Sequence record: PP359570
Source: Escherichia phage ALITA
Direction: 5' to 3' (one strand)
DNA: 64,000 nucleotides
The position numbers and the translations under genes were made by a program. Within the stretch, counting starts at the first letter, position 1, and every line of letters begins with the position of its first letter. A model generated the notes under the pieces. That model ran no database searches. It had not been told where the DNA came from and saw nothing but the letters and a program-made list of their open reading frames with translations. Positions 1,718 through 48,839 of the stretch are shown here, one piece after another.

Positions 1718-1728
1718 AAGGGGTTAAA

Positions 1729-2856: not shown

Positions 2857-2874
2857 GTAAGCCAGCAAATAAAA

Positions 2875-2896
2875 ACCCGCTTCGGCGGGTTTTCTT
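2875..2896 (+). terminator. intrinsic terminator ACCCGC-TTCG-GCGGGT + T-run
   Basis: Perfect 6-bp GC stem, UUCG tetraloop, tttctt tail right after stop of 1729..2856. Confidence 0.7.
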
Positions 2897-2930
2897 GTAT
2901 TGATACCAGATTTAATAAGAGGAGTAATAG

Positions 2931-4889: not shown

Positions 4890-5104
4890 TATTTTGAAAA
4901 TTTTTATTTTTATAAAAAGGGGTGTGGGTTTCATGTACGGAAATCCACCCTCTGAATAATATATCCAGAGTAAGTAGTATTCTGTACTCTGTTAATAAAG
5001 TATTTAATTTGTTTGTTGGATTATGGTGGCTGATCTTTAAAAGGCATACTATCTCTTAACTACTACTTATAACAAAACAGTAAAATCCTTTTTATAAAAG
5101 TACA

Positions 5105-5305
5105 AAATTATTTAAAGTTTTTACAGATTTTCGGGTACAAATTTTGAAAATGAAAAGTTCAAGTTTGGTCAAAATTATTTAAAGTTTTTGTACGTATTTC
5201 TGTCCAGATTTTGAAAATGAAAACTTCAATTTTTTAAAAATTCCCCAGTTTATTTAAAGTTTTTTTGCCTTTTTCCGTAGAAAAATCAAAAATGAAAAGT
5301 TCAAT
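5105..5305. repeat. three imperfect direct repeats (~67-75 bp iterons)
   Basis: Blocks TTATTTAAAGTTTTT (5108, 5175, 5249) and GAAAATGAAAAGTTCAA (5144, 5210, 5287) recur in the same order. Confidence 0.6.
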
Positions 5306-5327
5306 TTCGTGTTTTTATAGGTGTGTT

Positions 5328-5439
5328 AATGAGAATCATTTTCGTTTGTAAATGAGAATCATTATCATTTAACTATGTAAGTGATAATCATTCTCAGTAA
5401 GAGAATGAGAATCATTAGCAAATGAGAATTTTTCTCATT
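5328..5439. promoter_or_regulatory. array of five Fur-box-like operators (AATGAGAATCATT)
   Basis: 13-mers at 5328, 5351, 5380, 5404 and the perfect palindrome AATGAGAA-TTT-TTCTCATT at 5421-5439; the 19-mer ending at 5364 matches GATAATGATAATCATTATC at 16/19. Confidence 0.5.
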
Positions 5440-5674
5440 TACAGAATAACGCGCAGGGGCGGTGTTTGTCTCGCGCTCCCGTGTCCCCTCGCCATACAAT
5501 AAGAATAGCATAACCAATAACAAAAGCAAGCGATTATTTTTATCTTTACATTTCTTTACAAATTTATTTTAGACGAGCTACCGGCGATCAACCTTCCAAC
5601 CAGTGCCCCCTGGTATGTTAGCCCCGCCTTTACGCCGTGGGGTGGCGTTTCCTCTTCTGTATGTAAAACAGTAT

Positions 5675-5693
5675 AAGCCCGATCCCTGGGCTT
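5675..5693 (-). terminator. intrinsic terminator AAGCCC-N7-GGGCTT
   Basis: Hairpin 7 nt after stop of 5701..5967 on minus strand, followed by atactgtttt. Confidence 0.5.
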
Positions 5694-5700
5694 GTCAAGA

Positions 5701-5967
5701 TTATTTTTTGTTTTCTTGCCAGGATAGGACACCTAACCAAAAATACATGTCGCCCCGCGCCCCTGGTGGGATCTTGCTTTCCCCGCCGCCACTGCAAGCC
5801 CATAAATAACCATCAGCGAACGGATCAAAGTGATCTATCTCTTCCACCTTATGATCGCCCAGGTTGAGAACGGTTTCAACCTTTAAGCCCGTTGCGCTTG
5901 CTACCTGGTGCACCGTGCCGCCTTGCCAGCCCAGTGAGTGCATGAGATGTAAAGAAGTATTTGTCAT
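5701..5967 (-). CDS. hypothetical protein (only minus-strand gene of the island)
   Basis: 88-aa ORF with its own promoter/hairpin/purine leader upstream and a terminator downstream. Confidence 0.6.
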   Translation of the reverse strand: MTNTSLHLMHSLGWQGGTVHQVASATGLKVETVLNLGDHKVEEIDHFDPFADGYLWACSGGGESKIPPGARGDMYFWLGVLSWQENKK

Positions 5968-5989
5968 GGTATCGCCCTTTCTTTGTTGT

Positions 5990-6043
5990 GCGCCCTGGTT
6001 GGCGCGGTAGAAAGATGATAGCCGTTTCCTTCATATATAGCAA
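5990..6043 (-). promoter_or_regulatory. promoter + leader hairpin cassette (minus strand) for 5701..5967
   Basis: TTGCTA-N17-TATCAT, then GCGCC-AACCAG-GGCGC hairpin, then acaacaaagaaaggg leader before ATG. Confidence 0.5.
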
Positions 6044-6077
6044 GCAAAAAAGAAATGAAAAAAAGATTAAAAAATGG

Positions 6078-6106
6078 TTGACGTTCCTCACCTGGTAGCG
6101 TAGTAT
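6078..6106 (+). promoter_or_regulatory. sigma70-like promoter TTGACG-N17-TAGTAT
   Basis: Consensus-like hexamers, divergent from the minus-strand promoter at 6015-6043. Confidence 0.45.
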
Positions 6107-6233
6107 TCATCTTGTCGAGGGGGGCAAGACACAACGACAATAAACAATAGGCGGGTGCAATGCAAGACGGGCAAAGGTGAGGATCTCCACAATCCACCGT
6201 CACAATAACATTACTTATAAAAGGTTGATAACG

Positions 6234-6329
6234 ATGATCAAGAAAGAAAATAGCTTGACGGTTGGAACGATTAACGCTATCATTCTTGCCGTTCCATTTT
6301 GGATTGTAGTTGCGGTTATTATTTTCTAA
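6234..6329 (+). CDS. 31-aa hydrophobic peptide (hand-called)
   Basis: ATG..TAA, sequence MIKKENSLTVGTINAIILAVPFWIVVAVIIF; lies between promoters 6078 and 6340. Confidence 0.4.
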   Translation: MIKKENSLTVGTINAIILAVPFWIVVAVIIF

Positions 6330-6339
6330 AAAAATATTC

Positions 6340-6397
6340 TTGACAACGTTTTTTAATCTGATAAGATGTATCACATAGGGCGGCAATAGTGCCGCTC
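6340..6397 (+). promoter_or_regulatory. promoter/hairpin cassette C1 (serves 6420)
   Basis: TTGACA-N16-TAAGAT (TGn extended), cacATAG, hairpin GGCGGCA-ATAG-TGCCGC, leader cataacagaagagagaaataatc. Confidence 0.7.
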
Positions 6398-6419
6398 ATA
6401 ACAGAAGAGAGAAATAATC

Positions 6420-6692
6420 ATGGCATCATATAGCGCATCAATGATTGTAAAGGGTATCACTGGTAAACCTATGCGCGGTGGCGGATCTTTCGCTAACATC
6501 AATATTGATGGACGTTTATCCCTGGACGCAGCGATCACAGTGGCACGGGAAACATTTAAAAAAGAATGTAATTTCAATAAACAAGATTATCTCGGTTTTG
6601 CTATTGAAAAAACCGCGCGCTTTGTGGATTATAAAAGCCCGAAAATGATCGACACTACACTAAAAGCGCAAGATGTAGCGTTTTTGCTTTAA
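6420..6692 (+). CDS. hypothetical protein
   Basis: 90-aa ORF directly behind cassette C1. Confidence 0.7.
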   Translation: MASYSASMIVKGITGKPMRGGGSFANINIDGRLSLDAAITVARETFKKECNFNKQDYLGFAIEKTARFVDYKSPKMIDTTLKAQDVAFLL

Positions 6693-6705
6693 GACTTGAC
6701 ACTGA

Positions 6706-6756
6706 AAAATAATTTGATAATATATACCACATAAGGCGGGGAAATGGTTTCCCGCC
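6706..6756 (+). promoter_or_regulatory. promoter/hairpin cassette C2 (serves 6779)
   Basis: TTGACA-N16-TAATAT, hairpin GGCGGGGAAA-TGG-TTTCCCGCC, leader aaatcaaagaaaggg. Confidence 0.7.
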
Positions 6757-6778
6757 AAATCAAAGAAAGGGTAATGCA

Positions 6779-7141
6779 ATGAGCAAGCAAATCAATACTA
6801 TCATGTTTAATCTGGTATCTTTCCGCGATGACGTGAAAAACCTTTCGCGTGATGCAGTGGATGCACGGATCGAAAGCTATCGCACACAGATCGCAACGTT
6901 ACCGCTGAAACGTGATCAACATGCCGCTAATATGATGCTTGATGCTATGATTAAAAAGATGATTCAATGTGATCTTACCCTGGCTTATGAATATGCTGGC
7001 GATCTCTTTGTAACATATAGCAAGCCCGTTCCAGGTATGAGCACCACGGAAGAATTGCATGCCTTAAATCTGCGACAAGATGCATGGGATAACATGCGCC
7101 GTGTTATGGTATGGGTAGAAAGCGGTAAAATTTACGAATAA
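6779..7141 (+). CDS. hypothetical protein
   Basis: 120-aa ORF behind cassette C2. Confidence 0.7.
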   Translation: MSKQINTIMFNLVSFRDDVKNLSRDAVDARIESYRTQIATLPLKRDQHAANMMLDAMIKKMIQCDLTLAYEYAGDLFVTYSKPVPGMSTTEELHALNLRQDAWDNMRRVMVWVESGKIYE

Positions 7142-7147
7142 AAACGG

Positions 7148-7200
7148 TTGACATTGCACTAAAACCTGATAAGCTATCTTAAAGCGGGAATAGTTCCCGC
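7148..7200 (+). promoter_or_regulatory. promoter/hairpin cassette C3 (serves 7220)
   Basis: TTGACA-N16-TAAGCT, hairpin GCGGGAA-TAG-TTCCCGC. Confidence 0.65.
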
Positions 7201-7219
7201 TTACATAGGATAAAACTTT

Positions 7220-7366
7220 ATGAAACAATATGTAATGAGTATTCACACCAAAAACGGCGCTACTGTTACGACTCCGGCACGGTTTGCACTTGTAAACCGT
7301 TGCAAGAGACTAAAACGAGAGCTAAAAAACAACCGTGCAACGGGCTTTAAACGCTGGGGAGGATAA
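7220..7366 (+). CDS. 48-aa basic protein (hand-called)
   Basis: ATG 20 nt after hairpin C3; ends GGAGGATAA, which supplies the RBS for the next gene. Confidence 0.5.
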   Translation: MKQYVMSIHTKNGATVTTPARFALVNRCKRLKRELKNNRATGFKRWGG

Positions 7367-7368
7367 TC

Positions 7369-7629
7369 TTGTTTTTTCTAAAAGTTTTTGATAATGTGAT
7401 CGCTTTTGAACATGCTACAACGTTCGACCTGGCGAGATACGCTATCAGGTTTAAAGATAATGTTTATCCCCGTGCTGGCGGCGGTTACACTATTTTTAAT
7501 CATCGCAACGCGCAACTAACTGATATAACTAATCCAGATCCTGGAGTGTATCGGATAGGCTGGCTACCGTCAAAAGATGCGGCAAGCATGTTTAAGGTAT
7601 GTAAACTACTAACAGAAGAGGCGAACTAA
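7369..7629 (+). CDS. hypothetical protein (TTG start)
   Basis: 86-aa ORF, GGAGG 6 nt upstream of TTG. Confidence 0.55.
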   Translation: MFFLKVFDNVIAFEHATTFDLARYAIRFKDNVYPRAGGGYTIFNHRNAQLTDITNPDPGVYRIGWLPSKDAASMFKVCKLLTEEAN

Positions 7630-7630
7630 C

Positions 7631-8185
7631 ATGGGGCGTGAATATGTGATCCAGTCCTGGGTAAAGCATGATGCTAATGATCCGCGCATAATACCAGATG
7701 ACATGATCGATCACATGGTAGGGTATAGCGGGGAGCAGATAGGAAATCGAGCGGCAAAGAGCAACGGCAACACCAGGACGCGATCCGTTCGCCCTGGATG
7801 GCTGGCAAATGGTAACGCTGACATTGCAAGCGCCGCAGATCCAAGCGATGACGCTAAAAATAATCCCTTATACAGTATTGATCCGGCTTTTAAGGTGTTG
7901 GAAGAGTATCCCGCTAAATTAGCCGCACTAGATAAAGCATACGAAGAAAAACGGGTGGCATGGACTGTATACAACACCGCTAAAATGGTGCTAGATGCAA
8001 AATTGATTAAAGCCCAGGAGAAGATCAATAAACTTGTTACCATAGCGCAAGAGGAAGACCAGGACGACCAGGAGGAAGAGGAAGAAATCATGCCTAACCT
8101 GGAAGAGGAAGAGATCCAGCCATACACGCCGACAGAAGAGGAAAAAATACAAGCCTTAAAAAATTATAAAAATTGTATTGTGTAA
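7631..8185 (+). CDS. hypothetical protein with strongly acidic C-terminus
   Basis: 184-aa ORF, 1 nt after previous stop; tail QEEDQDDQEEEEEIMPNLEEEE. Confidence 0.65.
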   Translation: MGREYVIQSWVKHDANDPRIIPDDMIDHMVGYSGEQIGNRAAKSNGNTRTRSVRPGWLANGNADIASAADPSDDAKNNPLYSIDPAFKVLEEYPAKLAALDKAYEEKRVAWTVYNTAKMVLDAKLIKAQEKINKLVTIAQEEDQDDQEEEEEIMPNLEEEEIQPYTPTEEEKIQALKNYKNCIV

Positions 8186-28599: not shown

Positions 28600-29412
28600 T
28601 TACTTAGTCAAATGATCTTCTATCATTTTTATGAAAGCAGGATTGCTAAAAGCCTCTGCTGCCTTTTCTCTATAAACAAAGACTCCTCTATCTTCGTAAA
28701 GAAGAGTTTCTTCGTAATTAATTCCTGGGTTAACAACAATCATTTTTGTACCCATATTAAGTGCAGGGAATAATTCCCAATTAAAATTGATAACTTGGTT
28801 TGAACATCCTACTACAACAACCAAATCTTGCATGGTCAAAGTATCAAACAAGTGAGCCATATCTGCATACAAAGGTGCAGCCTCACCAAAAAATACAACA
28901 TTAGGCTTCACCCAGTTATAATCATCTATGTTTATACTATTGTAACCAATGTCTACCAGTGTTTTGTAATCTCCAGGATGCATACGGTAAACTACTTCAG
29001 GAAGATACCCGTGCACGTGAATAACAGAATCCCTGTCCACACCTGCTCGCTCTAATAGATCATCAACGTTTGTTGTCAAGTTTACTACTTGGTTAGGATA
29101 TTCCTTAAACCACTTTGCTATTTGAATATGTGCAGCATTAGGTTGTACATCTTTAAGCTCAACACGTCTTTTGTTATAAAATTCGTGTGTTTTGGCATAC
29201 AAATCCATACCGTTCTCGTCTACACCACCGACCACTGGAAGATCTGGAGATGTTCTCACACGATAACCTGCTTGGAAAGCTCCAATATCGCAGACCTCTT
29301 CTAAATCATATTCTTCCCACAAGGCACGACCACTATCTGTGTCTGTTCGGAACGTTCGAATCCCACTGTCTGCACTTAAACCTGCGCCACTAACAAAAAT
29401 TACTCTTCGCAT
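28600..29412 (-). CDS. SIR2-family NAD-dependent deacylase / ADP-ribosyltransferase
   Basis: VSGAGLSADSGIRTFR NAD-binding motif at the N-terminus; length and VVVGCS...VN layout typical of CobB-like sirtuins. Confidence 0.85.
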   Translation of the reverse strand: MRRVIFVSGAGLSADSGIRTFRTDTDSGRALWEEYDLEEVCDIGAFQAGYRVRTSPDLPVVGGVDENGMDLYAKTHEFYNKRRVELKDVQPNAAHIQIAKWFKEYPNQVVNLTTNVDDLLERAGVDRDSVIHVHGYLPEVVYRMHPGDYKTLVDIGYNSINIDDYNWVKPNVVFFGEAAPLYADMAHLFDTLTMQDLVVVVGCSNQVINFNWELFPALNMGTKMIVVNPGINYEETLLYEDRGVFVYREKAAEAFSNPAFIKMIEDHLTK

Positions 29413-30618: not shown

Positions 30619-30741
30619 TTACCCCCAATGTATATGGGAAATTAACCAAAAGATAAATTCCCAAAAACACCAACCAAGAAAAGTTAATGGAATTATAAAA
30701 GCTATCAGAGCAGTCTTCCAGCCTTTCCACAATGTTTCCAC
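30619..30741 (-). CDS. 40-aa Trp-rich membrane peptide (hand-called, GTG start)
   Basis: GTG overlaps the methyltransferase stop (TAGTG) after GGAGGAATA; stop lies 1 nt before the next ATG. Confidence 0.4.
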   Translation of the reverse strand: METLWKGWKTALIAFIIPLTFLGWCFWEFIFWLISHIHWG

Positions 30742-31730
30742 TATTCCTCCATACATTTAAGAATATGTGCAATGACAGGTATAGTCCAACCGTTACCTAA
30801 CATCTTATATGCTTGTGTGTTACTACTCACTTTAAAGTAGTCATCTGGCACACCTTGCAAACGGCAACACTCTTTAACGGTTAACTTTCTATAATGTACG
30901 CCTTCACTCAATTTTTCAAAAGCATCTAAATATCTTCCAGGTGGAATGTAAGCTAATAGTACGTCTTTCGGCACAGTCGTGAGGCAACGAGTTTTTTCAC
31001 TGTCCTGAACTTCCAAACAATGTACCAAACGATCAGTTTTAGATGTACTACGTTTGCCATTTTCATTAATTCTACGCCCATATATTGCTGCTGGATAAAA
31101 AACCAGTTGTCTGCGACTCTTTTCAAAATACTGTTCTATATTACCACCTTTGGCATAATTTGCATCTATGCAATAAGCCTTATCTCTGTCTACAATACTA
31201 TCATCTTCAATGATATCTTGCAACACTTCATTGGTAATATCCCAGGGTTTTATTTCCCAGTTGCACCAGTATAAACGTTGTCTATTCTGTGCCGTGAAAT
31301 CTGCGGAGTTAATGAATACGGGATCAACACCTAAGTAACTTGTGATCACGTTTTCCCACTCCACTTTCATCTTAACGTTTTCAAGCATGAACTTAACATT
31401 AGGGTTAAACTTTTTAATATGTTCAAGAATCTCAACATATTCGAAGAATAGCTTAGATCGCGGATCTTGAAAGTTCAAACCCTTACCAGAAGAAGAGAAG
31501 CCTTGACACGGACTACCACCTAACAAAAGATCAATTTCTCCCCACGGGATATCCCATTCTCTCCATTTTGTAACATCACCTAACTGAATAATATCTGGAA
31601 AATTTGCTTGGCTTTCAGCTATGGCGAATTTGTCTAATTCTGAAGCATAATATGTATCTACGTCAATACCTGCACTTTTTAGCGCAAGCATTCCTCCTGA
31701 CATGCCATCAAAAAGACTTAAAACTTTCAT
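30741..31730 (-). CDS. DNA (cytosine-5)-methyltransferase
   Basis: Motif I LFDGMSGG, IV GGSPCQGFS, VI ENV, VIII QNRQR, X GNGW. Confidence 0.9.
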   Translation of the reverse strand: MKVLSLFDGMSGGMLALKSAGIDVDTYYASELDKFAIAESQANFPDIIQLGDVTKWREWDIPWGEIDLLLGGSPCQGFSSSGKGLNFQDPRSKLFFEYVEILEHIKKFNPNVKFMLENVKMKVEWENVITSYLGVDPVFINSADFTAQNRQRLYWCNWEIKPWDITNEVLQDIIEDDSIVDRDKAYCIDANYAKGGNIEQYFEKSRRQLVFYPAAIYGRRINENGKRSTSKTDRLVHCLEVQDSEKTRCLTTVPKDVLLAYIPPGRYLDAFEKLSEGVHYRKLTVKECCRLQGVPDDYFKVSSNTQAYKMLGNGWTIPVIAHILKCMEE

Positions 31731-35770: not shown

Positions 35771-36433
35771 TTATTTAATATTCAATTTTGCACAAAGACG
35801 TTGTACCGCTTTGGCATCGAACAAACTCCCACGAATAGTTCTCTTTCCTGATTCATTCAGATGTTTTGCAATCGTCATATATGGCGTTTTACAAGCTCTG
35901 TATGCAACTAAAGAATCTTTTAAAGAAAGCGCAAACTCTTTTGAGCGTTTTGCTTCTTCCGTTTTCGTATAATCTGTTCTTTTGTATTTAGGGTTTGCTG
36001 CACCAAGAAGCGTTCCCTTCGCTTTTGCTACTTTAAGGCTCTTCTTAACACGATCAGATATTGCACGAGCCTCTTCTTCTGCCAGAACTGCTAAAATATT
36101 TATTATCATATTTTCAGCGGAGGGCATAGTTGCTATTCGTACATTAATCATCTCTAACAAGGTTGCAACAGAAGCTGTGTTACGTCCAAGACGGTCAACC
36201 TTAGCAACAACAAGTGTAGCACCTGTTTCTTTGCAAAGATTAACAGCTTTTACAAGCTCTCTACGTTGCTTCCAATCGCCTTTACCCGAATAAAACTCTG
36301 CAAAGCTACCTACAATAGTATAATTTTCTTGTGAATCCAGGAAGCGTTGGATATCTGCTTCCTGTGATTCTATACCATACTGGTTGCCTTGTTGTTTCTT
36401 CTTAGAAAGTCGATGATACAGTACAAACTTCAT
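35771..36433 (-). CDS. small serine recombinase (resolvase/invertase type, C-terminal HTH)
   Basis: YHRLSKKKQ catalytic-Ser motif, VAKVDRLGRN, EEEARAISDRVK, C-terminal HTH IAKHLNESGKRTIRG. Confidence 0.85.
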   Translation of the reverse strand: MKFVLYHRLSKKKQQGNQYGIESQEADIQRFLDSQENYTIVGSFAEFYSGKGDWKQRRELVKAVNLCKETGATLVVAKVDRLGRNTASVATLLEMINVRIATMPSAENMIINILAVLAEEEARAISDRVKKSLKVAKAKGTLLGAANPKYKRTDYTKTEEAKRSKEFALSLKDSLVAYRACKTPYMTIAKHLNESGKRTIRGSLFDAKAVQRLCAKLNIK

Positions 36434-36937: not shown

Positions 36938-37447
36938 TTAAACAAAATAGAAAGGTTGAGTTAAACCCAGCCTGTTTTTTGGGTCGTAGACGTACCAAGC
37001 ATATGCTGTCTTATCAGTACCACCTGCAACAAAAGATGGTCGTTCAGAAAGAACAATCAAATTTGTTGGTGGATTCTGTTTATGGAACTCCCTTCGTTTA
37101 ATAGACTCTAGGAACCCAAGACGCAACAAGTATATGCAAACGTCTGCTTCTTTTAAGCTCTTTTGCAAGAACTCAAGTGCAAGTTTGAATGGGGGATTTG
37201 TGATTATAATATCCGGCTTAGTATGCCATTCGTGGTTAAAATAATCTTTCCCTTCTTCTAACTCACAATATTCTGATCCTTCTGGAAAATGTTGATAAAT
37301 TGCAGCAGCAGCACCTTTACACGGTTCTGCAAAAATAAAACCTTCTTCTTTAAGGTTATTAAAATCTATTACACTAAATAATGCATTTATACATTTTTGT
37401 GGAGTAGGATAGTAATCAGTTGGTGGACGATCATACTTATTTGCCAC
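36938..37447 (-). CDS. DNA N6-adenine methyltransferase (gamma-type, NPPF)
   Basis: YYPTP (motif X), FAEPCKGAAA (motif I-like), IIITNPPF (motif IV). Confidence 0.7.
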   Translation of the reverse strand: MANKYDRPPTDYYPTPQKCINALFSVIDFNNLKEEGFIFAEPCKGAAAAIYQHFPEGSEYCELEEGKDYFNHEWHTKPDIIITNPPFKLALEFLQKSLKEADVCIYLLRLGFLESIKRREFHKQNPPTNLIVLSERPSFVAGGTDKTAYAWYVYDPKNRLGLTQPFYFV

Positions 37448-37906: not shown

Positions 37907-38560
37907 TTAATTATCAGAGGATACTTTATCAAGTTTTTCAGAGACTGTCAATACTTTTTCTTGTGATTCTTTCATTTCTGCTAAAATACTTTCAGCTTCA
38001 TCACTATCAGGATCACCAGTCAACAGCATACTAATTAGTTGCTCCTTGCTGAAGTTCAGAATATCTTCCGCTGTTAGCTCCAGTTGTTCTTCGATCTCTT
38101 CAACAAAAGTTTCACCCCCTGAAAAAGCATCTCGTAGTTTTGCAACTTCCATTGCTTCTTCTGGGGTTGCCCCAGCGTCTAAAGCTGCTAAAGCAAAATC
38201 TGCCCCACTACCAACAGCATAGTAATCTTCAGTTAAAGGATATGCTCGCGTTGGATTATTACCCTCGTGCATATAAATTTTACCGTCTGGGTGAACAACC
38301 AATGCCACAAACTCTTCATCTTCTTTATCAGGATCGGACTGGATCACCAAACCTGGGATTGTCTCTTGTGCTGCTTGGCATTGTAAGTTTTGTTCGAACC
38401 AAGAAAAGAAAGTCAGGATAGAAGACAGACGTCCTGCACCACCAACAAGGTAGTCCCCAATTTTACGCACTTTCTTGAAATTTAAAGTGTCTACACGACT
38501 ACCTACTGTTACTTTACCGTCAGACAGAATTTTGTTACGTGTTGCAATAATTGTTGTCAT
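37907..38560 (-). CDS. HslV/proteasome-beta-like Ntn peptidase with acidic C-terminal extension
   Basis: MTTIIATRNK (Thr2 nucleophile), KVRKIGDYLVGGAG, AVGSGADFALAA align with E. coli HslV as recalled. Confidence 0.75.
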   Translation of the reverse strand: MTTIIATRNKILSDGKVTVGSRVDTLNFKKVRKIGDYLVGGAGRLSSILTFFSWFEQNLQCQAAQETIPGLVIQSDPDKEDEEFVALVVHPDGKIYMHEGNNPTRAYPLTEDYYAVGSGADFALAALDAGATPEEAMEVAKLRDAFSGGETFVEEIEEQLELTAEDILNFSKEQLISMLLTGDPDSDEAESILAEMKESQEKVLTVSEKLDKVSSDN

Positions 38561-40539: not shown

Positions 40540-40800
40540 TTACTCCGCAATCTGAGCCATGAATTCACGTAGTTCAGAAAAACCTCCTACGTGGGTTAGC
40601 TGTTCACCATCTTCCACAAAAATCTGAGGAAATGTACGTGGTAGAACACCTGTTTTCTCTAAGACCAGATTCTGAATCTGATCTAAAGAATAGTCTTCAT
40701 CTAAGGTAAGGTATTTAAAATCCTGTTCACGCTGTTCTAGTAGAATCTTAGCGTTAGTGCAGAAAGGACAATTTGGTTTACCGTAGATAATAAAATTCAT
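40540..40800 (-). CDS. glutaredoxin/NrdH-like redoxin
   Basis: YGKPNCPFCTNAK active site; AAGGAG RBS favours the ATG at 40800. Confidence 0.85.
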   Translation of the reverse strand: MNFIIYGKPNCPFCTNAKILLEQREQDFKYLTLDEDYSLDQIQNLVLEKTGVLPRTFPQIFVEDGEQLTHVGGFSELREFMAQIAE

Positions 40801-40802
40801 TT

Positions 40803-41633
40803 TCACTCCTTGTTTAAAAGTATAGTTAAAGTTCTTACAATACCGCTATCAACACTTCGCGGATTTAAAGTAGGATCTGTTTTTAAATAAGATGTTGCTG
40901 GTCTGACTGCTTTGGAGTTATAGGTTGAAGCAGACACAGGATTAACTGTAACCGATAAATCTATAACAAGAAATATCTTACGTGCAAAGTCATACCAAGA
41001 AATATAATCTGCACCTGCATAGTGTACAATTTTACTATTTACACCATCTTTTACAAGTTTAAAAATTGTTTCTGCAAGATCAGGTGCATAAGTAGGACAC
41101 GACAAATGATCACATACTACATTAAATTCTTTTTGACCACCGTTGTAGCGTTCCAACATAGTTTTCAAAAAGTTATGTCCAAATTCACTATAAACAGAAG
41201 CTGTTCTGATAATAAGTGCTGTAGGACAAACTGTTTGTACTAAAGTTTCACCTAATTGTTTACTATAACCGTAGGTGTTCAAGGGGTTTGTTTTACTATC
41301 TTCTGTACCAGCAACATGCCCATCAAAAACATAGTCTGTTGAAATATGTACAAACTGTATCAGTAAATCATTACATGCTTTGGCAATGTTTGTTGCACCG
41401 TATGCATTAACATTTATACAGGTGTTAACATCTTCTTCAGCTTTATCTACTGCCGTGTAAGCCGCACAATTCACAACAACATCAGGCACATGCTGTACAA
41501 GATTATTCATAACATCTTTAAAGTTGGTAATGTCTACATCACTTGCTTCAATCAAAATAACATCTTCGGGCGCAACTTTTGCCAAAGACTGTCCTAATTG
41601 ACCTTTTGAACCAAAGATTAAAAATTTTGTCAA
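40803..41633 (-). CDS. rmlD: dTDP-4-dehydrorhamnose reductase
   Basis: FGSKGQLGQ Rossmann motif, STDYVFDG, length 276 aa. Confidence 0.9.
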   Translation of the reverse strand: MTKFLIFGSKGQLGQSLAKVAPEDVILIEASDVDITNFKDVMNNLVQHVPDVVVNCAAYTAVDKAEEDVNTCINVNAYGATNIAKACNDLLIQFVHISTDYVFDGHVAGTEDSKTNPLNTYGYSKQLGETLVQTVCPTALIIRTASVYSEFGHNFLKTMLERYNGGQKEFNVVCDHLSCPTYAPDLAETIFKLVKDGVNSKIVHYAGADYISWYDFARKIFLVIDLSVTVNPVSASTYNSKAVRPATSYLKTDPTLNPRSVDSGIVRTLTILLNKE

Positions 41634-42184
41634 AGTATGATCTCCTTTAGTGTTTTTGCTTCCTGATCTTTTTGTGACAAGATAGGTTTAAAATTAATAT
41701 CATTAAAGATTAAATCAAAACCCCAATCTATATTGATATCTGGATCATTCCACGCAAGACTACACTCTGAAGTCGGATCGTAATATTCTGTACACTTATA
41801 TTCAAAATCAGCAATATCGCTAATCACAACAAAGCCATGAGCGAAACCAGGAGGAATCCAAAATTGTGTTTTATTCTTTTCAGATAAGAGAACACCTACC
41901 CATTCTCCAAATGTTGGACTACCAACTCTAATATCTACAGCAACATCATAAACTTCACCACGAACACAACGTACTAACTTCCCTTGTGGGTTTTTCTTTT
42001 GAAAATGAAGCCCACGTAGAACTCCTCGGATAGAACGTGAATGGTTATCTTGGACAAAGTTTTGTTTACCTATGTATTGATCATATAAAGCCTGATTAAA
42101 ACTTTCTAAGAAAAAACCACGTTCATCTCCGTAAACGTCAGGTTGAATGATCAACAAATCTTCGATTTTTGTTGCTTGAATCAT
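41630..42184 (-). CDS. rmlC: dTDP-4-dehydrorhamnose 3,5-epimerase
   Basis: GDERGFFLESF, RGLHFQ, PPGFAHGF cupin motifs. Confidence 0.92.
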   Translation of the reverse strand: MIQATKIEDLLIIQPDVYGDERGFFLESFNQALYDQYIGKQNFVQDNHSRSIRGVLRGLHFQKKNPQGKLVRCVRGEVYDVAVDIRVGSPTFGEWVGVLLSEKNKTQFWIPPGFAHGFVVISDIADFEYKCTEYYDPTSECSLAWNDPDINIDWGFDLIFNDINFKPILSQKDQEAKTLKEIIL

Positions 42185-42196
42185 TTAATCTCCCCT

Positions 42197-43066
42197 TTAT
42201 TTTAATTTAAGTAAATACTTGCCGTAGTCTGTTTTACTTAAAACCTCTCCAGAACTTTTTACGGAATCTAAAGTAATCCATTCATTTTTAAAAGCAATCT
42301 CTTCTAGACATGCAACCTTCATACCTTGTTGCTTTTCTATTGCATGAACAAATTGAGATGCTTCCATAAGACTTTCATGTGTTCCTGTATCCAGCCAAGT
42401 GAAACCTCTTCCTAGCTTACAGACACGTAAAGCCTTTTCTTTCCAGTACATCTCATTTATATCTGTGATCTCTAACTCCCCTCTAGCAGAAGGCTTAACG
42501 CTTTTAGCTTTCTGTATAACAGAATTATCGTAAAAGTACAAGCCTGTAATTGCATAGTTGCTTTTTGGTGCTTTTGGTTTTTCTTCAATACTTACCACTG
42601 TACCTTCAGAATCAAACTCAACAACACCAAATCTTTCAGGATCATTTACGTGATACCCAAAAATATTAGCTCCACCATTCTTTTCAATATGTTCTCTAGC
42701 AGAATCTAAAATGCTACCAAAACTCTGACCAAAGAATAAATTATCACCTAGAACAAGTGCTACAGAATCTTCACCAATAAAGCTCTCACCAATAATAAAC
42801 GCTTCTGCTAAACCTTTTGGGCTGTCCTGTATTGCATACTGTAGGGAAACACCAAAAGAAGAACCATCACCTAGAAGATTTACAAAATTAATTTGATCTT
42901 CTGGTGTTGTAATTATTAGTATTTCCCTAATTCCAGAAAGCATTAGGACAGAGAGTGGATAATAAATCATAGGTTTATCGTAAATTGGTAATAGTTGTTT
43001 ACTAACCCCTTTAGTAACTGGGTAAAGTCTTGTTCCACTACCACCCGCTAAGATAATACCTTTCAT
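42197..43066 (-). CDS. rmlA: glucose-1-phosphate thymidylyltransferase
   Basis: [31 protein letters not shown] motifs. Confidence 0.95.
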
Positions 43067-43074
43067 ACTCCTCC

Positions 43075-44064
43075 TTAAACTTTATTTTCCCACCACTCTT
43101 TGTTATCTACATACCAATCAATGGTTGAATAAAGTTTTTCTTCAAATGTGCCTTTAGCTTTCCACCCTAATTCCTTTTCAATCTTATAAGGATTCACTTC
43201 ATATCTTAGATCATGTCCAGGTCTATCTGTAACCATCTCAATTAGGCTACAAGCATCTGTTTCAGATGGATACACCGCATCCATATAATCACAAATCATA
43301 TAGATTACATCAATATTAGTTCTAGGGTTTCTGCTCCCAATATTATATGTTTCTCCAGATTTGCCTTTAGTTACTACTAGGTGTAATGCTTCTGCGTGAT
43401 CGTCAACGTATAACCAGTCTCTTACCTGAAGACCATTGCCATAAACAGGGATTGGTTTATTCATCAAGATATTTGTTATCGTTTTAGGTATTAGTTTTTC
43501 TGGATGATGGTATGCTCCAAAATTATTTGAACAATTTGTTATAACTGTCGGAATACCATAAGTACGATGCCACGCTCTTACCAAATGATCGCTTGCTGCC
43601 TTAGATGCAGCATATGGACTACTTGGCTTATAAGGATTCTGTTCTGTAAACGGATAATCCCCTTCTTCCATATCACCATATACTTCATCTGTTGAAATAT
43701 GATGGAACATTTTAAGATTTGATTTATCTCCCATTAAACGAACAGCTTCTAGGAGATTAAATGTCCCAACAATATTTGAATTTATAAAAACACTCGGTGA
43801 TGCTATTGAATTATCTACGTGACTTTCTGCTGCAAGATGCATTATATAATCTGGATTAACATCTGCCACAATCTTAGCAGTTAACTGCGCATTTGTCAAG
43901 TCAACACGACAAAACTTTACATTGGGTGTTTCTGATAAATTTCTAGGGTCTGAAGCGTAACCCCATTTATCTATAACGTAAATATCATTTTTAGTATTTT
44001 TAGCCAGGAAACGAACTACTGCACTTCCAATAAAGCCTAAACCACCTGTTACTAAGTATTTCAT
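43075..44064 (-). CDS. rmlB: dTDP-glucose 4,6-dehydratase
   Basis: [26 protein letters not shown] (YxxxK). Confidence 0.95.
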
Positions 44065-44261
44065 TTAGTCTCCTTCCAATTATTCCCTTCAGTAAAAATA
44101 ATACCTTCATAAAACAACCATCTGGAACCTTTTTCAACAGGAACAGGAATCTCTTCTTCAGTAAAGTTATAAACTTCTCTAGCATCTTCTAAAAGTGATG
44201 CAAATGTTTTTGGACTTACTGTTACGCGAGGAGCATTGATCAGTTGATCTAGCATCATTCT
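44061..44261 (-). CDS. hypothetical protein (66 aa)
   Basis: AAGGAGG RBS before MMLDQL; the longer track ORF overlaps the upstream gene. Confidence 0.55.
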   Translation of the reverse strand, partial: RMMLDQLINAPRVTVSPKTFASLLEDAREVYNFTEEEIPVPVEKGSRWLFYEGIIFTEGNNWKETK

Positions 44262-44271
44262 ACTATCCTCC

Positions 44272-44598
44272 TTACCAAACGTGTTGAGAAATAATAGTTT
44301 CCGTTTCAATGTTATATTTTTCAAGAAGTTGTGCGTAGGCTTCTTTTGCATTCTTATTTAGTTGCTCAAGATCTACAGCTATACTTCCTTCGCCACCTTC
44401 TAAATAAATGCCATATATGCAATAAGATTCATCAGCATCATAGAAAGGAGAGATACGGCTTAAATCAAGACCTTCTTGTAAGAACCAATTAAAATCTCCA
44501 TCAAATTCTTCTTCAATTCTAGGATCTTCTCCTACAGCCCCTTCCCATTTATTAAAAGGTGCACCCTGTAACATACGCCATGCAATATCAACCCCCAC
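44272..44598 (-). CDS. hypothetical protein (GTG start)
   Basis: 108-aa ORF. Confidence 0.6.
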   Translation of the reverse strand: MGVDIAWRMLQGAPFNKWEGAVGEDPRIEEEFDGDFNWFLQEGLDLSRISPFYDADESYCIYGIYLEGGEGSIAVDLEQLNKNAKEAYAQLLEKYNIETETIISQHVW

Positions 44599-44734
44599 TA
44601 TCTTCCTCCTCTTCTTTTTCTTCTGTATGAACGAAACCTAAGCCGTTACAATTCCAACAAGGAATAAATTGTTCCATACTAACAATAAAATTCCCAGTGC
44701 CGCCGCAGATAGGACAAATACTTACATCGTCCAT
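44588..44734 (-). CDS. 48-aa DnaJ-type zinc-finger mini-protein (hand-called)
   Basis: CPICGGTG...CWNCNGLG; acidic tail; overlaps the next start by 11 nt. Confidence 0.45.
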   Translation of the reverse strand: MDDVSICPICGGTGNFIVSMEQFIPCWNCNGLGFVHTEEKEEEEDSGG

Positions 44735-44736
44735 TA

Positions 44737-44919
44737 TTAAAGCTCCTCAATCTTTTCTAACATCTGTTTTAACTCATTCTCTGTTAACAGAATTTCTGTG
44801 ATACCATCATAAGTTTCTACCATCAGAGTAAAACATTTCTCTCCATCTGAACACACAAAAGCACCACCTTCATCTTCTGTTAAGTCAGAATTAATATCTA
44901 CATCAACAAAATCAATCAT
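44737..44919 (-). CDS. hypothetical acidic protein
   Basis: AAGGAGAAAAAG RBS before ATG 44919 (track ORF starts at TTG 44943). Confidence 0.55.
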   Translation of the reverse strand: MIDFVDVDINSDLTEDEGGAFVCSDGEKCFTLMVETYDGITEILLTENELKQMLEKIEEL

Positions 44920-45130
44920 CTTTTTCTCCTTTGATAATTTCAAACTTGGCTACACCATTAACTATAATATGACCGCAAGACAGAACTCCTAGCCAATGAT
45001 CACCATTCTTTTTTAAACGTTTACCGTAAACATCACAGAAACCATTCTGTAATTCGGAAGCCTCATAAGAGGCTCCCTTTTCGAAAACGTCTTTGAAGTC
45101 AGAAATTAATCCAACACAAAGTAGTTTCAT
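44912..45130 (-). CDS. hypothetical protein
   Basis: 72-aa ORF; start overlaps the nrdB stop. Confidence 0.6.
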   Translation of the reverse strand: MKLLCVGLISDFKDVFEKGASYEASELQNGFCDVYGKRLKKNGDHWLGVLSCGHIIVNGVAKFEIIKGEKDD

Positions 45131-46215
45131 TAGAAGTCTAACTCCTCGTCATCACTTACATCTTTATTTGCTGAATTCAGTTTGTAAGCTGTAATTTGGA
45201 TCTCCTGTGCTGCTGCTTGAATTTGATCTGGGTTTAACCAAACATCCATCCAAGGCAGTGGACTTTTCTTCGGTGCACGGAATTTGTGTTTCATTTTCAG
45301 TCTGCGATAGATAGGTGCAGCATTGAAGTAAACCCAAAGTTTGAACAACTCTGCGTTACCACCAACGATAACCCTTCCTTCACTAAACAGATAGTCACAC
45401 CAATCTTCCTCTTGTCCAACTACCGTGTCAAGAATTTCTGTCAGAACGTCGATATTATCTTCGTATACTTTTCTCCAAACAGGATCTTTCAGCAGTGCAT
45501 CAATAATAGCATAATCCATTTTAACGTGCAATAGTTCATCCAACATAATTTTTTGAATGAGTTTAGCTGCACCTACAAACAATTGCTGCTCTGCTAAGGC
45601 AAATGTTGCAGCAAAAGAGGATATGAATTGAATGCCTTCCAGACCGATAAGTGCAATCATTCCTTTCAAGATCAGTAGACGAAGGTTATCATCCTTCTCA
45701 ATCAGACCTAGAGCATATTTATGTCCTGCCTCTGCCAGATCACCCATTATCTCTTCAACTATACCCATCCTCTGGAAGATTCTTTCATTCTCCATAATCT
45801 GATCGATAACTTCATTTGGATTAGGGATACACTGACGAATAATTTCAGAATATGTCAAAGCGTGTAAAACTTCCATTTCTGATTGCTTCATCATCATTGC
45901 ACATGCTTCGTTGTTGCTTAAAAATGGTGCAAACAAAGTGATGATTGATTTAGCAAGTGAATCATTTTCCCATTGGAAAGATAGGTTTTTGATCATAACA
46001 TCATAGTTGCTTTTAGAACAAGCTACGAAATCTTTTCGTGTCTGATCTAAGTTTACTTCGTTTTCATCCCAATCTTGCTGTTTTTGTAGTTTGTACAGAC
46101 GATGCATTTCTGGGTATGTTACATTAATAGAATCAAAAATACCTAACTGTTCTCCCAAAAATACAGGGTAGAAACCTTCTTTGTAAGTGTCGTTGTATAA
46201 GTTAATTGCTGCCAT
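45130..46215 (-). CDS. nrdB: ribonucleotide reductase class Ia beta subunit
   Basis: Iron-ligand helices (EVLHALTYSE, LEGIQFISSFA, DELLHV) and acidic C-terminal tail. Confidence 0.9.
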   Translation of the reverse strand: MAAINLYNDTYKEGFYPVFLGEQLGIFDSINVTYPEMHRLYKLQKQQDWDENEVNLDQTRKDFVACSKSNYDVMIKNLSFQWENDSLAKSIITLFAPFLSNNEACAMMMKQSEMEVLHALTYSEIIRQCIPNPNEVIDQIMENERIFQRMGIVEEIMGDLAEAGHKYALGLIEKDDNLRLLILKGMIALIGLEGIQFISSFAATFALAEQQLFVGAAKLIQKIMLDELLHVKMDYAIIDALLKDPVWRKVYEDNIDVLTEILDTVVGQEEDWCDYLFSEGRVIVGGNAELFKLWVYFNAAPIYRRLKMKHKFRAPKKSPLPWMDVWLNPDQIQAAAQEIQITAYKLNSANKDVSDDEELDF

Positions 46216-46537
46216 TTAAATCCTCCACAATATCACACATTGCTTTTATTGTATCAATGTGTTCTCTCTCCATACCATCATCTAGGTAAGCCTTCTCTAA
46301 TGCGTCCCATACACTCTTTGTGAGTAGTATAGTAACCTCTCCCTCATACCTTGCTCTGGTTAAAGCATACCAGGTAGCTATGGGATCATTGGAAGCCCAT
46401 ATTTCAACACTGGAAAATTGAAAACCTGCAATATAATGACAACACCAATCGAATGTAAAATCTTTACTATCTACCAGTGTATAATTTCCCCAGCGTCTTT
46501 GTGGTGTTGCTCCAGGTAATACAACTAATGTAGGCAT
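46202..46537 (-). CDS. hypothetical protein between nrdA and nrdB
   Basis: AAGGAGG RBS before MPTLVVL; 14-nt overlap with the nrdB start. Confidence 0.55.
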   Translation of the reverse strand: MPTLVVLPGATPQRRWGNYTLVDSKDFTFDWCCHYIAGFQFSSVEIWASNDPIATWYALTRARYEGEVTILLTKSVWDALEKAYLDDGMEREHIDTIKAMCDIVEDLNGSN

Positions 46538-46550
46538 ATTCCTCCTTAAG

Positions 46551-46570
46551 AAAGGGGGACAAAGCCCCCT
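46551..46570 (-). terminator. hairpin GGGGG-N6-CCCCC + TTTC
   Basis: After the nrdA stop. Confidence 0.45.
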
Positions 46571-46577
46571 AGTTTCA

Positions 46578-48839
46578 TTACATCTTACAAGCCTCACAAC
46601 CGGATTCTTCATCCTCTTGAGCGAGTGAGGTTGCCGATTTTGTTCTGCTATTTAGATAGTACAAAGATTTACCACCAAGTTTTGCAAACTGAAGAATATA
46701 TTGCATTTCTGATTTAATGGATAAACGACCACCTTCCATCTTAGAATAGTCAATCCACTTATCACATGATGCACCTTGATCTAAGAATTTAGTCAACAGC
46801 CCATATGCTTCAGCCATATCTTTATCTGGTGTATCCCAAGCCGATTGGTAAATATCTTTTAGTTTATCGTAGTCTGGCACAATAAACAGAACATTACCCT
46901 TTTGGCTTTGTTTATAAACTATAGTATCACGTACAGGATACACAGAGTTAGTCGTATTACTTACAAGACTACTGGACTCATTTGGAGCAATAGCTGCTAA
47001 TACACTATTTCGGATACCGCCCTGTGCAATGATATCTTGTCGTAAACCTTCCCAATCCATTTTAAGTTTAAAATTGCCAATATCGTCTACAGCTTTAGCG
47101 TAGGTGTCAATAGGCAACCATCCTTCAGGCCATTTGGTTTTATGCATCCATTCTGCATTACCTTTCTCTTTTGCCAAACGAAGAGAAGCTCTTGCTAACC
47201 AATAATAATGTCTTTCTGCTAATTCGTGAATTAGTTTTTTGCCGTAAGGATCTGAATAAGTAACAAAATTACTTGCCAGATAATGTGCAAGGTTTGTAAT
47301 ACCTACACCGATAGACCTACGTGCTTTAGCAGTGATTTCGTTATGTTTAAACGGATACTGCATTGTTTCAATAACATTATCAATAGTTAGAACGGTATAA
47401 TATGCAACATCTTCATATTCTTCTGGTGTAACACGACCAGCTACAATAGAAGACAGGAAGCATAATGCCAATTCTTGGTCTTCTGTATTCTCACCTGTGA
47501 AAAGATCAGTCATATTGTGAAATGCTTTCGTAGGTAAGAAAATTTCTTGGCACAAGTTTGACTGGTAAATAACATCCTTAAACGGAGTATGCTTATTAGC
47601 ATTATCCGCAAAGAACATATAAATACGTCCTGTTTCTGCTCTTTGTGTAATAATTTCTGCCAGAAGATCTCGTGCTTTTACAAACTTCTTCTTAATTCGT
47701 TTGCGACTAACTTTTTCATATACTTCTTCAAACTCTTCCTCGCTTTTATAAAGCGCCTCATAGAGTTCTGGTGCTTCGTCATAACTGACTAGCATCCAAT
47801 CTTTACCTTTTGCTGCACGTCGCAGGAAAGCATTGTTTACTACAATAGAGTAATCAAGTTTATCTACTCGTTTTTCACTAACAGTAGTTGGGTTTTTCAA
47901 ACGTACCAGATCTTCAAAATCAGGTTCTAATATTGTAAACGTTACTGTTGCACTTCCACCACGGCTTGCTTGTTTTGATGCTCCAACACTTGTCTCCATC
48001 CATTTCAGATATGGTAAAAGACCACCGTGAACGATACGGTTGTTCTTAACACCTTGTCCTGTAGCACGGGTTTGGAGGTTAACACCAATACCTGCATTAT
48101 TCAATGTATATTCATGAGCAAGATAGTTAGCAATTGCTAAAGACTCTGCTGTATCATCTGCTCTAAACAGACAACAAGAAGCACTACCTTTAATCTTAGT
48201 ACGCAAAGTTGTTAAATAAGGCGATGGTAAATTAATCTTAAGATCACTTACGTAGGTATATAGACGTTTAATGTCTTCTACTCTGCGATCTTTTGGTTGA
48301 ATTTCCATTACCTTCATTGCTACACCAATGAATAAAAACTGTGGTGATTCAAAAACAACATCATTGATCGCATCTTTCACAAGATACTTATCAACCATCT
48401 GGCGCAGTACGGAATAACCATAAGTTAGGTTTTTATCGTGATTGACAATCTTACCAATCTCAATAATTTCTTCTTCTGTATAATCCATTTTTCCCCAATA
48501 GCCTTTACTTACAGACATATTGTAGAAATCCAGGAGGGAGGGGATATTGTGATATCCCCCATGAGCCTGTTTATAAATCATACCAAGAAGTAACCGACCT
48601 GCCATATCACTATATGCCTGATCTTTCTTATCAATACATGCTGCTATCATAGCTTTATGTAAATCACGAGTAGGCACACCGTCGTAACAACGTTTAACAG
48701 CTTCGAGTTCGATTTCAGACCAATTTAATTTACCAGCAGCAAACTCTGACCATTTACGAAGTTTTTCTGGATTAAATTCTTCTTTCTTGCCGTTTGTTTT
48801 TGTTACATAACGGATAGATTTGCTTAGATACTGAGTCAC
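46578..48839 (-). CDS. nrdA: ribonucleotide reductase class Ia alpha subunit
   Basis: N-terminal ATP-cone (YVTKTNGKKEEFNPEKL), catalytic-core motifs, C-terminal CEAC redox pair. Confidence 0.95.
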   Translation of the reverse strand: MTQYLSKSIRYVTKTNGKKEEFNPEKLRKWSEFAAGKLNWSEIELEAVKRCYDGVPTRDLHKAMIAACIDKKDQAYSDMAGRLLLGMIYKQAHGGYHNIPSLLDFYNMSVSKGYWGKMDYTEEEIIEIGKIVNHDKNLTYGYSVLRQMVDKYLVKDAINDVVFESPQFLFIGVAMKVMEIQPKDRRVEDIKRLYTYVSDLKINLPSPYLTTLRTKIKGSASCCLFRADDTAESLAIANYLAHEYTLNNAGIGVNLQTRATGQGVKNNRIVHGGLLPYLKWMETSVGASKQASRGGSATVTFTILEPDFEDLVRLKNPTTVSEKRVDKLDYSIVVNNAFLRRAAKGKDWMLVSYDEAPELYEALYKSEEEFEEVYEKVSRKRIKKKFVKARDLLAEIITQRAETGRIYMFFADNANKHTPFKDVIYQSNLCQEIFLPTKAFHNMTDLFTGENTEDQELALCFLSSIVAGRVTPEEYEDVAYYTVLTIDNVIETMQYPFKHNEITAKARRSIGVGITNLAHYLASNFVTYSDPYGKKLIHELAERHYYWLARASLRLAKEKGNAEWMHKTKWPEGWLPIDTYAKAVDDIGNFKLKMDWEGLRQDIIAQGGIRNSVLAAIAPNESSSLVSNTTNSVYPVRDTIVYKQSQKGNVLFIVPDYDKLKDIYQSAWDTPDKDMAEAYGLLTKFLDQGASCDKWIDYSKMEGGRLSIKSEMQYILQFAKLGGKSLYYLNSRTKSATSLAQEDEESGCEACKM

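Follow-up and report, generated by a model that had tools for sequence, protein, structure and literature searches.

A complete dTDP-L-rhamnose pathway in Justusliebigvirus coliphages: predicted donor supply for phage glycosyltransferases and a possible role in virion glycosylation

The synthesis of dTDP-L-rhamnose proceeds in four steps. RmlA forms dTDP-glucose from glucose-1-phosphate and dTTP, RmlB converts dTDP-glucose to dTDP-4-keto-6-deoxyglucose, RmlC epimerises this intermediate at C3 and C5, and RmlD reduces it at C4 to yield dTDP-L-rhamnose. In bacteria the corresponding genes form rml (or rfb) operons, ordered rfbBDAC in Salmonella and E. coli and rmlBACD in some other bacteria. Here we examine a block of four genes, rmlB-rmlA-rmlC-rmlD, from Escherichia phage ALITA (sequence record PP359570), of which a stretch of 64,000 nucleotides, referred to below as the window, was analysed. 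The phage block is like the bacterial operon in its four enzyme families, in the catalytic residues that these have kept and in its tight packing on one strand. It differs from it, however, in that it resides in a virulent myovirus, with a phage-like GC content, between nrdB and a glutaredoxin gene (grx), in that none of its enzymes exceeds 64-66% identity to the bacterial ones examined, and in that it lies outside an O-antigen or capsule locus, unaccompanied by Wzx, Wzy or an initiating transferase.

Among viruses, Mimivirus combines a UDP-L-rhamnose pathway with glycosyltransferases (GTs) for its fibrils, and chlorovirus PBCV-1 has capsid glycans. These giant viruses infect eukaryotic hosts and reach UDP-rhamnose by a different, two-enzyme route, whereas the sugar nucleotide of the coliphages is predicted to be dTDP-rhamnose; the structural matches of the coliphage GTs represent generic GT-A similarity. 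We know of no tailed-phage counterpart of their arrangement, in which a virus brings both its own sugar pathway and its own GTs, nor of any other virion glycosylation system in phages of Gram-negative bacteria. Phage DNA glycosylation, by the alpha- and beta-GTs of T-even phages or by TET-associated GT-A enzymes, resembles the coliphage case in having several GTs encoded near replication genes of a large virulent phage. Compared with these systems, including the one that makes arabinosyl-5-hydroxycytosine (PMC13326640), the coliphages are sensitive to restriction-modification (RM) systems (Maffei et al., 2021), the donor would be a dTDP-sugar, and our scans revealed no enzyme that would prepare an acceptor base. 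The gp108-110 cassette of mycobacteriophage Che8, as in the coliphages, encodes soluble GTs with no link to DNA-modification genes, and in Cluster F cassettes of the Velveteen and MooMoo type the neighbour of a Che8 gp110 orthologue has a GT2 domain that is homologous to gp046 of phage alia, a close relative of ALITA. The GTs of Che8 do not match those of the coliphages, however, and the mycobacteriophage cassettes that we inspected encode no nucleotide-sugar pathway; moreover, virion glycosylation is reported for Che8, as relayed by papers citing the original study, and is conjectural in the coliphages. The same feature, with the same locus, gene order and neighbours, is found in phAPEC8, phi92 and other Stephanstirmvirinae.

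The four genes were assigned to families by the curated equivalog cutoffs of NCBIfam, by Pfam domains and by alignment to solved Rml enzymes. All lie on the minus strand where a first-pass annotation, made from the letters of the window, had placed them, and each product scored above its cutoff: RmlB at 443 bits against TIGR01181 (cutoff 365), RmlA at 471 bits against TIGR01207 (cutoff 361), RmlC at 260 bits against TIGR01221 (cutoff 156) and RmlD at 254 bits against TIGR01214 (cutoff 224). Such agreement lies well outside what chance would give. The Pfam domains were as expected, and solved enzymes could be aligned to essentially the whole of each of the four proteins. RmlB shares 57% identity with the Salmonella enzyme (1g1a), and the GxxGxxG, TDE and YxxxK motifs are aligned. 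For RmlA, identity to the Salmonella enzyme (1iim) is 66% over residues 2-288; WLDTGT is aligned, and the protein has the G-G-x-G-T-R-L nucleotide-binding loop and the catalytic Lys and Asp. Identity between RmlC and its Salmonella counterpart (1dzr) is 62%; the catalytic His, Lys and Tyr are aligned and the LRGLHFQ, GKLVRC and YK.T.YY regions are in register, in keeping with the cupin-fold family. RmlD is more distant from its reference, Bacillus anthracis RmlD (3sc6, 37% identity), and the STDYVF and YGYSK segments are aligned, with the T and the YxxxK motif kept. When compared with alia, the rmlBACD genes show 40 synonymous and 9 non-synonymous differences, that is, a pooled ratio of non-synonymous to synonymous change (pN/pS) of 0.06 (0.04 for rmlB and 0.07 for rmlA), against 0.04 for nrdB. 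Within the genus, purifying selection on the four rml genes is strong. Judged by their sequences, the four genes almost certainly encode the dTDP-L-rhamnose pathway, which looks functional; that RmlD would make L-rhamnose rather than its C4 epimer, 6-deoxy-L-talose, we infer from family membership only. Among GTDB species representatives, the closest bacterial RmlC is that of Marinomonas, at 64% identity. Since no bacterial relative exceeds this value, the rml genes are long resident in the phage. A recent capture from the host was rejected on the basis of the same value together with the phage-like GC content of the rml genes (0.35-0.36, in a window that ranges from 0.33 to 0.42).

A megablast search placed the window in the genus Justusliebigvirus (phi92-like, Stephanstirmvirinae) and returned 55 phage records with an identity of 95-99% and a further 73 with 80-90%, many of which already name the four rml genes. 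The window is colinear with positions 72,483-136,718 of alia and 98-99% identical to many Justusliebigvirus coliphages (98.2% for EmilieFrey and PaulScherrer). Several records titled "Campylobacter phage", with C. jejuni given as the host (MG065639, MG065645, MG065689 and others), are nevertheless 98-99% identical to these coliphages over the whole locus, and their titles likely result from contamination or mislabelling. In phAPEC8, deposited in 2012, the gene order is nrdA-x-nrdB-small ORFs (open reading frames)-rmlB-A-C-D-grx-lysozyme-PhoH, with the four rml genes annotated. The rml locus itself is already known, having been annotated since 2012 in more than 100 deposited genomes, and DNA rhamnosylation has already been proposed for these phages (Olsen et al., 2020; PMC7552041). 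Because of these annotations and that proposal, both the pathway and its interpretation as a DNA-modifying system were previously published. The view of the first-pass annotation that such a pathway is unusual in a lytic phage holds for phages overall, as RmlC homologues occur in 169 of 50,697 phage records, but not within the clade, to which about 131 of these rml-carrying genomes belong. Our literature searches found no experimental answer as to the target of the rhamnose in this phage clade.

That no GT is recognisable in the window was borne out when the four GTs of its relatives were used in a tblastn search against it, with no match better than E = 0.04. A search beyond the window, as had been suggested, located four GTs in close relatives, so that their apparent lack is an artefact of the window. 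In alia, four adjacent genes annotated as GTs (gp044-047) occupy positions 43,544-46,720, about 26 kb before the start of the window, and adjoin the primase/helicase and DNA polymerase genes. All close relatives encode the four proteins, two of the GT-A and two of the GT-B fold. gp044 and gp045 are paralogues (41% identical) with GT-B signatures of the GT1/GT4 type (Pfam, PHROG). The matches of the GT-A proteins include the dTDP-rhamnose-using Listeria RmlT and dTDP-bound SpsA; a search of solved structures with GT sequence profiles gave nothing for gp046 and gp047, and weak GT4 matches only for gp044. All four lack predicted transmembrane segments, and three are acidic (pI 5.2-5.6). Across the 50,697 phage records, RmlC was found in 54 records at an identity of at least 95% and in 77 at 60-80%; the respective counts were 55 and 71 for gp046, 53 and 74 for gp044, and 54 and 77 for gp047. 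Related Klebsiella phages, of the same set, carry the rml and GT genes at lower identity. Because of this matching, if correlative, distribution, we think it probable that the rml pathway supplies the four phage GTs.

The first-pass annotation had listed DNA bases, virion proteins, the host envelope and the dTTP pool as possible points of action of the pathway, and had leaned towards DNA. We instead favour virion proteins, although tentatively: the phage may keep a host-independent supply of dTDP-rhamnose for their glycosylation. With somewhat greater reserve, we suggest that the rml block and the four-GT cluster might form an autonomous system that coats the virions of Justusliebigvirus and Phapecoctavirus with rhamnose-containing glycans. 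Expression of the rml block probably coincides with that of the early or middle genes for nucleotide metabolism, and the donor that it makes would depend neither on the host serotype nor on host gene expression; the supply would extend to E. coli serotypes without rmlC and rmlD, and to the period after host expression is shut off. The four soluble phage GTs would then use the donor to assemble a short glycan, for which the most likely acceptor would be the phage's own virion proteins, by analogy with Cluster F mycobacteriophages and with giant viruses that have a rhamnose pathway; this is the weakest step of the proposal. A supply of its own fits with the very broad host range of this phage group (Maffei et al., 2021).

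Each GT family has only a handful of homologues outside the clade, those in phages being located within or next to the virion-gene modules of small phages. Their genomic contexts provide circumstantial evidence: they appear to point to virion or protein targets, and none to DNA. gp046 matches the N-terminal GT2 domain of 478-residue proteins in 88 Mycobacterium phage records, of the Cluster F type in those inspected, and these proteins are its only phage homologues outside the clade. The right-end cassette that holds the gp046 homologue in Velveteen and MooMoo also contains, next to this gene, an orthologue of Che8 gp110, with 83% identity in Velveteen and 50% in MooMoo. As relayed by citing papers, gp110 is essential for capsid glycosylation in Che8, in which both capsid and tail-tube proteins are glycosylated (Freeman et al., 2023). 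gp047 matches the C-terminal domain of a 407-residue GT of Cellulophaga siphophages, the gene for which is placed between those for portal/minor capsid and protease/major capsid proteins and beside a Methyltransf_24 gene; in Che8 gp108, a Methyltransf_24 domain and the GT2 domain are joined in a single protein. In Streptomyces phage KimJongPhill, a gp044 homologue forms part of a nucleotide-sugar epimerase-methyltransferase-GT cassette directly upstream of the terminase, portal and capsid genes. Finally, a gp044 homologue in Burkholderia dolosa (35% identity) follows a gene for an intimin/invasin-type adhesin and a gene for a 571-residue protein, and the neighbours may represent an adhesin-glycosylation pair.

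Several points weigh against a virion target. That virion proteins would accept the glycan is something that we only infer, and the presence of the GT cluster in ALITA itself is presumed from its relatives, at 98-99% identity. Any of the four GTs, or none, may use dTDP-rhamnose; their homologies outside the clade are distant (25-35% identity), and GT folds do not reveal acceptors. Direct homology of the coliphage GTs to Che8 gp108-110 was considered and rejected, as BLASTP gave no significant match, and the link to the Che8 GTs would be only indirect, at the level of the cassette, via the GT2 domain of Velveteen gp98. Further, the GT cluster is located in the replication module and not among the structural genes, and the synteny GT-small ORF-primase/helicase-DNA polymerase is conserved in related metagenomic myoviruses. 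We also looked for a clade-specific C-terminal tail on the major capsid protein that could serve for glycosylation, and found none: the alignment reaches residue 331 of 333 in a comparison with relatives of about 43% identity, which are unannotated rV5-like records whose GT content was not checked.

It is also conceivable, although we consider it unlikely, that the GTs remodel the host envelope. Acting in the cytoplasm, they would add rhamnose from the dTDP-sugar to lipid-linked host glycans, either the core of the lipopolysaccharide (LPS) at the inner leaflet, whose assembly requires no phage flippase and which host MsbA and Lpt would export, or intermediates primed by undecaprenyl-pyrophosphate-linked GlcNAc (Und-PP-GlcNAc) of the O-antigen, the enterobacterial common antigen (ECA) or the N4 glycan receptor (NGR) glycan. 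The changed envelope would alter receptors and limit superinfection or the loss of progeny on debris. These phages do recognise glycans of the cell surface and the outer core of the LPS, according to literature that includes Maffei et al. (2021), and a review links prophage genes for dTDP-rhamnose and LPS to superinfection exclusion. In addition, gp044 and gp045 are GT4-like GT-B proteins whose family profile weakly matches MshA, TreT and PglA, and one depositor named a gp044 homologue RfaG. However, no Wzx, Wzy, WaaL or GtrB-like protein is encoded in the whole alia genome. A hydropathy scan of alia ORFs of at least 80 residues detected no component of a Gtr-type system (GtrA flippase, GtrB or polytopic serotype GT); TerC, with 9 predicted segments, is the only polytopic membrane protein, and two small ORFs have 3 segments each. 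Moreover, LPS made within one lytic cycle would leave the receptors already at the surface unmasked, and the outside homologues of the GTs belong to virion modules of phages rather than to LPS loci of bacteria. A variant in which dTDP-4-keto-6-deoxyglucose is diverted from ECA so as to remove a receptor was rejected, as the phage RmlA and RmlB add flux instead; later work, which explains the K-12 dependence by the NGR glycan and not by ECA, also counts against it.

Less likely still, the GTs could act on another acceptor, glycosylating a host protein, a small molecule or RNA in the course of host takeover or counter-defence. The genes lie in early or middle parts of the genome where counter-defence-like functions are frequent (Sir2, NADAR, Macro and NAD salvage genes), the sequence places no constraint on the acceptor, and the bacterial gp044 homologue beside an adhesin gene hints at protein substrates in general. 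We know of no precedent for such an activity, however, and of no specific candidate, and a set of four GTs seems better suited to building an oligosaccharide than to making a single regulatory modification.

We regard DNA glycosylation, the proposal of Olsen et al. (2020), as improbable. Rhamnose-containing glycans would be carried, sparsely or at specific sequences, by a modified base of the phage DNA. In line with this possibility, the GT cluster adjoins the genes for primase/helicase and DNA polymerase, the rml genes are found among dNTP genes, and the phage encodes a C5-cytosine methyltransferase. gp046 also shows a sub-threshold match to the TET-associated GT (TAGT) family PF20691 (24.1 bits, cutoff 27.5) and to the PHROG of the T-even beta-glucosyl-hydroxymethylcytosine alpha-glucosyltransferase; the invariant residues of its family, R16, D64-D66 and E141-D142, are similar to the R...DDD...EDY/F motif that DNA GT-A enzymes have, although this amounts to weak motif similarity only, and its mycobacteriophage relative scores as GT2, not as TAGT. 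To our knowledge, characterised phage DNA GTs use UDP-sugars. Three of the four coliphage GTs, as noted, are acidic. Further, the alia annotation and Pfam scans of some 30 candidate proteins, which did not cover every small ORF, revealed neither a ThyA-type hydroxymethylase nor a TET/JBP oxygenase; the sole thymidylate-synthase-like gene is of the ThyX type, which the rml-less Vequintavirus also has. The RM systems tested on these phages reportedly include EcoRI, EcoRV, type I and type III; sensitivity to them would exclude bulk modification of any base within their sites. Maffei et al. (2021) describes phi92-like phages as "exceptionally susceptible" to RM systems in spite of a "putative dTDP glycosylation machinery", and two of the phages in that study, EmilieFrey and PaulScherrer, are the near-identical relatives of the window named above. 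This clade is absent from the genome list of an HMM-based search for DNA GT-A enzymes (bioRxiv 10.1101/2023.12.21.572611), and surveys of phage DNA glycosylation do not list it. The leaning of the first-pass annotation towards DNA thus finds no support in the reported RM sensitivity or in our scans for base-modifying enzymes.

The linkage to dNTP genes, together with an atypical ThyX, had been taken to favour a role in DNA or nucleotide metabolism, a view that the pattern of insertion does not support. In Vequintavirus DrSchubert the orthologous grx begins 4 bp after nrdB and the small ORFs are absent, whereas in Stephanstirmvirinae about 4.3 kb, made up of four or five small ORFs and rmlBACD, separates nrdB from grx. 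Vequintavirus has neither rml nor the GTs, and none of the RmlC and GT matches listed is a Vequintavirus. Class Ia ribonucleotide reductase (RNR) has glutaredoxin as its natural reductant, and grx belongs functionally with nrdAB and not with rml. The simplest reading is that, in the ancestor of the subfamily, the rml block and the small ORFs were inserted into a conserved nrdA-nrdB-grx module. Because grx adjoins nrdB in the rml-less Vequintavirus, the linkage of rml to dNTP genes looks positional. The ThyX-like protein reaches only 36.9 bits with the Thy1 family of Pfam and bears a long extra C-terminal region; it is 52% identical to its DrSchubert counterpart, a value close to that of NrdB (51%). 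It is thus typical of the wider phage group and not of rml carriers. Rerouting of pools, in which the pathway drains or buffers dTTP and glucose-1-phosphate with no dedicated transferase, has its position among dNTP genes as sole support and is highly improbable, since dTTP is needed by a replicating phage, which here also encodes RNRs, ThyX and thymidine kinase, RmlA by itself could act as a sink whereas purifying selection conserves the full set of four enzymes, and the rml genes co-distribute with four GTs.

Between Justusliebigvirus and Phapecoctavirus, the rmlBACD-grx block has diverged much further than its flanks. In a comparison of window positions 40540-44064 with phAPEC8 segment 2619-6157, the block products are 54-72% identical in amino-acid sequence (RmlB 63%, RmlA 72%, RmlC 62%, RmlD 54%, Grx 56%), as against 76-92% for the flanks (NrdB 84%, orf108 of the small-ORF run 92%, lysozyme 77%, PhoH 76%). 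The window RmlC is as near to that of Marinomonas (64%) as to that of phAPEC8; in a rough, unbootstrapped neighbour-joining tree, the two phage RmlCs pair, on long branches. Either fast divergence or replacement of the cassette at the same site could account for the pattern. The difference in identity suggests separate acquisition of rml in the two genera, whereas the pairing in the tree speaks otherwise.

The layout of the locus is given in Table 1. As first annotated, a glutaredoxin gene follows rmlD directly, which the ORF listing confirmed, and nrdA and nrdB lie upstream on the same strand. Overlaps of 4 bp join rmlD to rmlC and grx to rmlD, and the gaps between rmlB and rmlA and between rmlA and rmlC are 8 and 12 bp. 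The gene model of rmlD is identical in alia and phAPEC8, which also share the small ORFs of the nrdB-rmlB interval; the two largest of these gave zero Pfam or NCBIfam matches. A sequence scan of the minus strand from nrdB to the lysozyme gene found no terminator-like site. Promoter-like matches around the locus occurred only at chance level, a scan that says little on operon structure. Co-transcription of the rml block with the nrd genes is plausible from this arrangement.

Table 1. Features of the locus and other genes of the window mentioned in the text (aa, amino acids)
Feature	Position in window	Strand	Remarks
grx, glutaredoxin	40806..40540	minus	88 aa, CPFC motif, Pfam PF00462 45 bits
rmlD	41633..40803	minus	276 aa, TTG start, dTDP-4-dehydrorhamnose reductase
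rmlC	42184..41630	minus	184 aa, dTDP-4-dehydrorhamnose 3,5-epimerase
rmlA	43066..42197	minus	289 aa, glucose-1-phosphate thymidylyltransferase
rmlB	44064..43075	minus	329 aa, dTDP-D-glucose 4,6-dehydratase
4-5 small ORFs, nrdB-rmlB interval	44061..45130	minus	function unassigned
nrdB, class Ia RNR beta subunit	45130..46215	minus	annotated in alia and phAPEC8
nrdA, class Ia RNR alpha subunit	46578..48839	minus	753-aa ORF; annotated in alia and phAPEC8
ThyX-like protein	49620-50591	minus	323 aa
NADAR-domain protein	4338-4889	plus	alia orthologue gp103, 126 bits
Sir2-family protein	28600-29412	minus	81 bits
C5-cytosine DNA methyltransferase	30741-31730	minus	150 bits
"DNA invertase", serine-recombinase type	35771-36433	minus	by alia annotation
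DNA methyltransferase	36938-37447		by alia annotation
HslV-family peptidase	37907-38560	minus	by alia annotation

Several other features of these genomes were observed. At about 28 kb of the window, gene orientation and GC skew switch, with the maximum of cumulative GC skew at 26-28 kb; many small plus-strand ORFs precede this point, and minus-strand genes for metabolism and replication follow it. NADAR domains are linked to the reversal of ADP-ribosylation, and the window gene whose alia orthologue has this domain is a candidate counter-defence gene. The Sir2-family protein is encoded near the C5-cytosine methyltransferase, and alia annotates further DNA methyltransferases, one of which corresponds to a gene of the window. 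The putative invertase and the HslV-family peptidase are both unexpected in a strictly lytic myovirus. Outside the window, at positions 1437-8068 of the 50001-100000 segment of alia, genes for a Macro domain protein, a HAD hydrolase and a ComF-like phosphoribosyltransferase accompany a Ter-type cluster that encodes TelA and TerC and, in relatives, TerD and vWA as well; the whole resembles bacterial sets of Ter-associated genes for nucleoside-like metabolites.

The analysis narrows the options for the acceptor and names the GT genes that probably partner rml. These broad-host-range phages are frequent candidates for therapy and common in therapeutic cocktails. If virion proteins are indeed the target, a rhamnose-containing glycan on the particle could affect recognition by antibodies and the immune system, particle stability and pharmacokinetics, and virion glycosylation would extend from mycobacteriophages to coliphages. 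If the target were instead DNA or the host envelope, the pathway would represent a new donor chemistry for either process.

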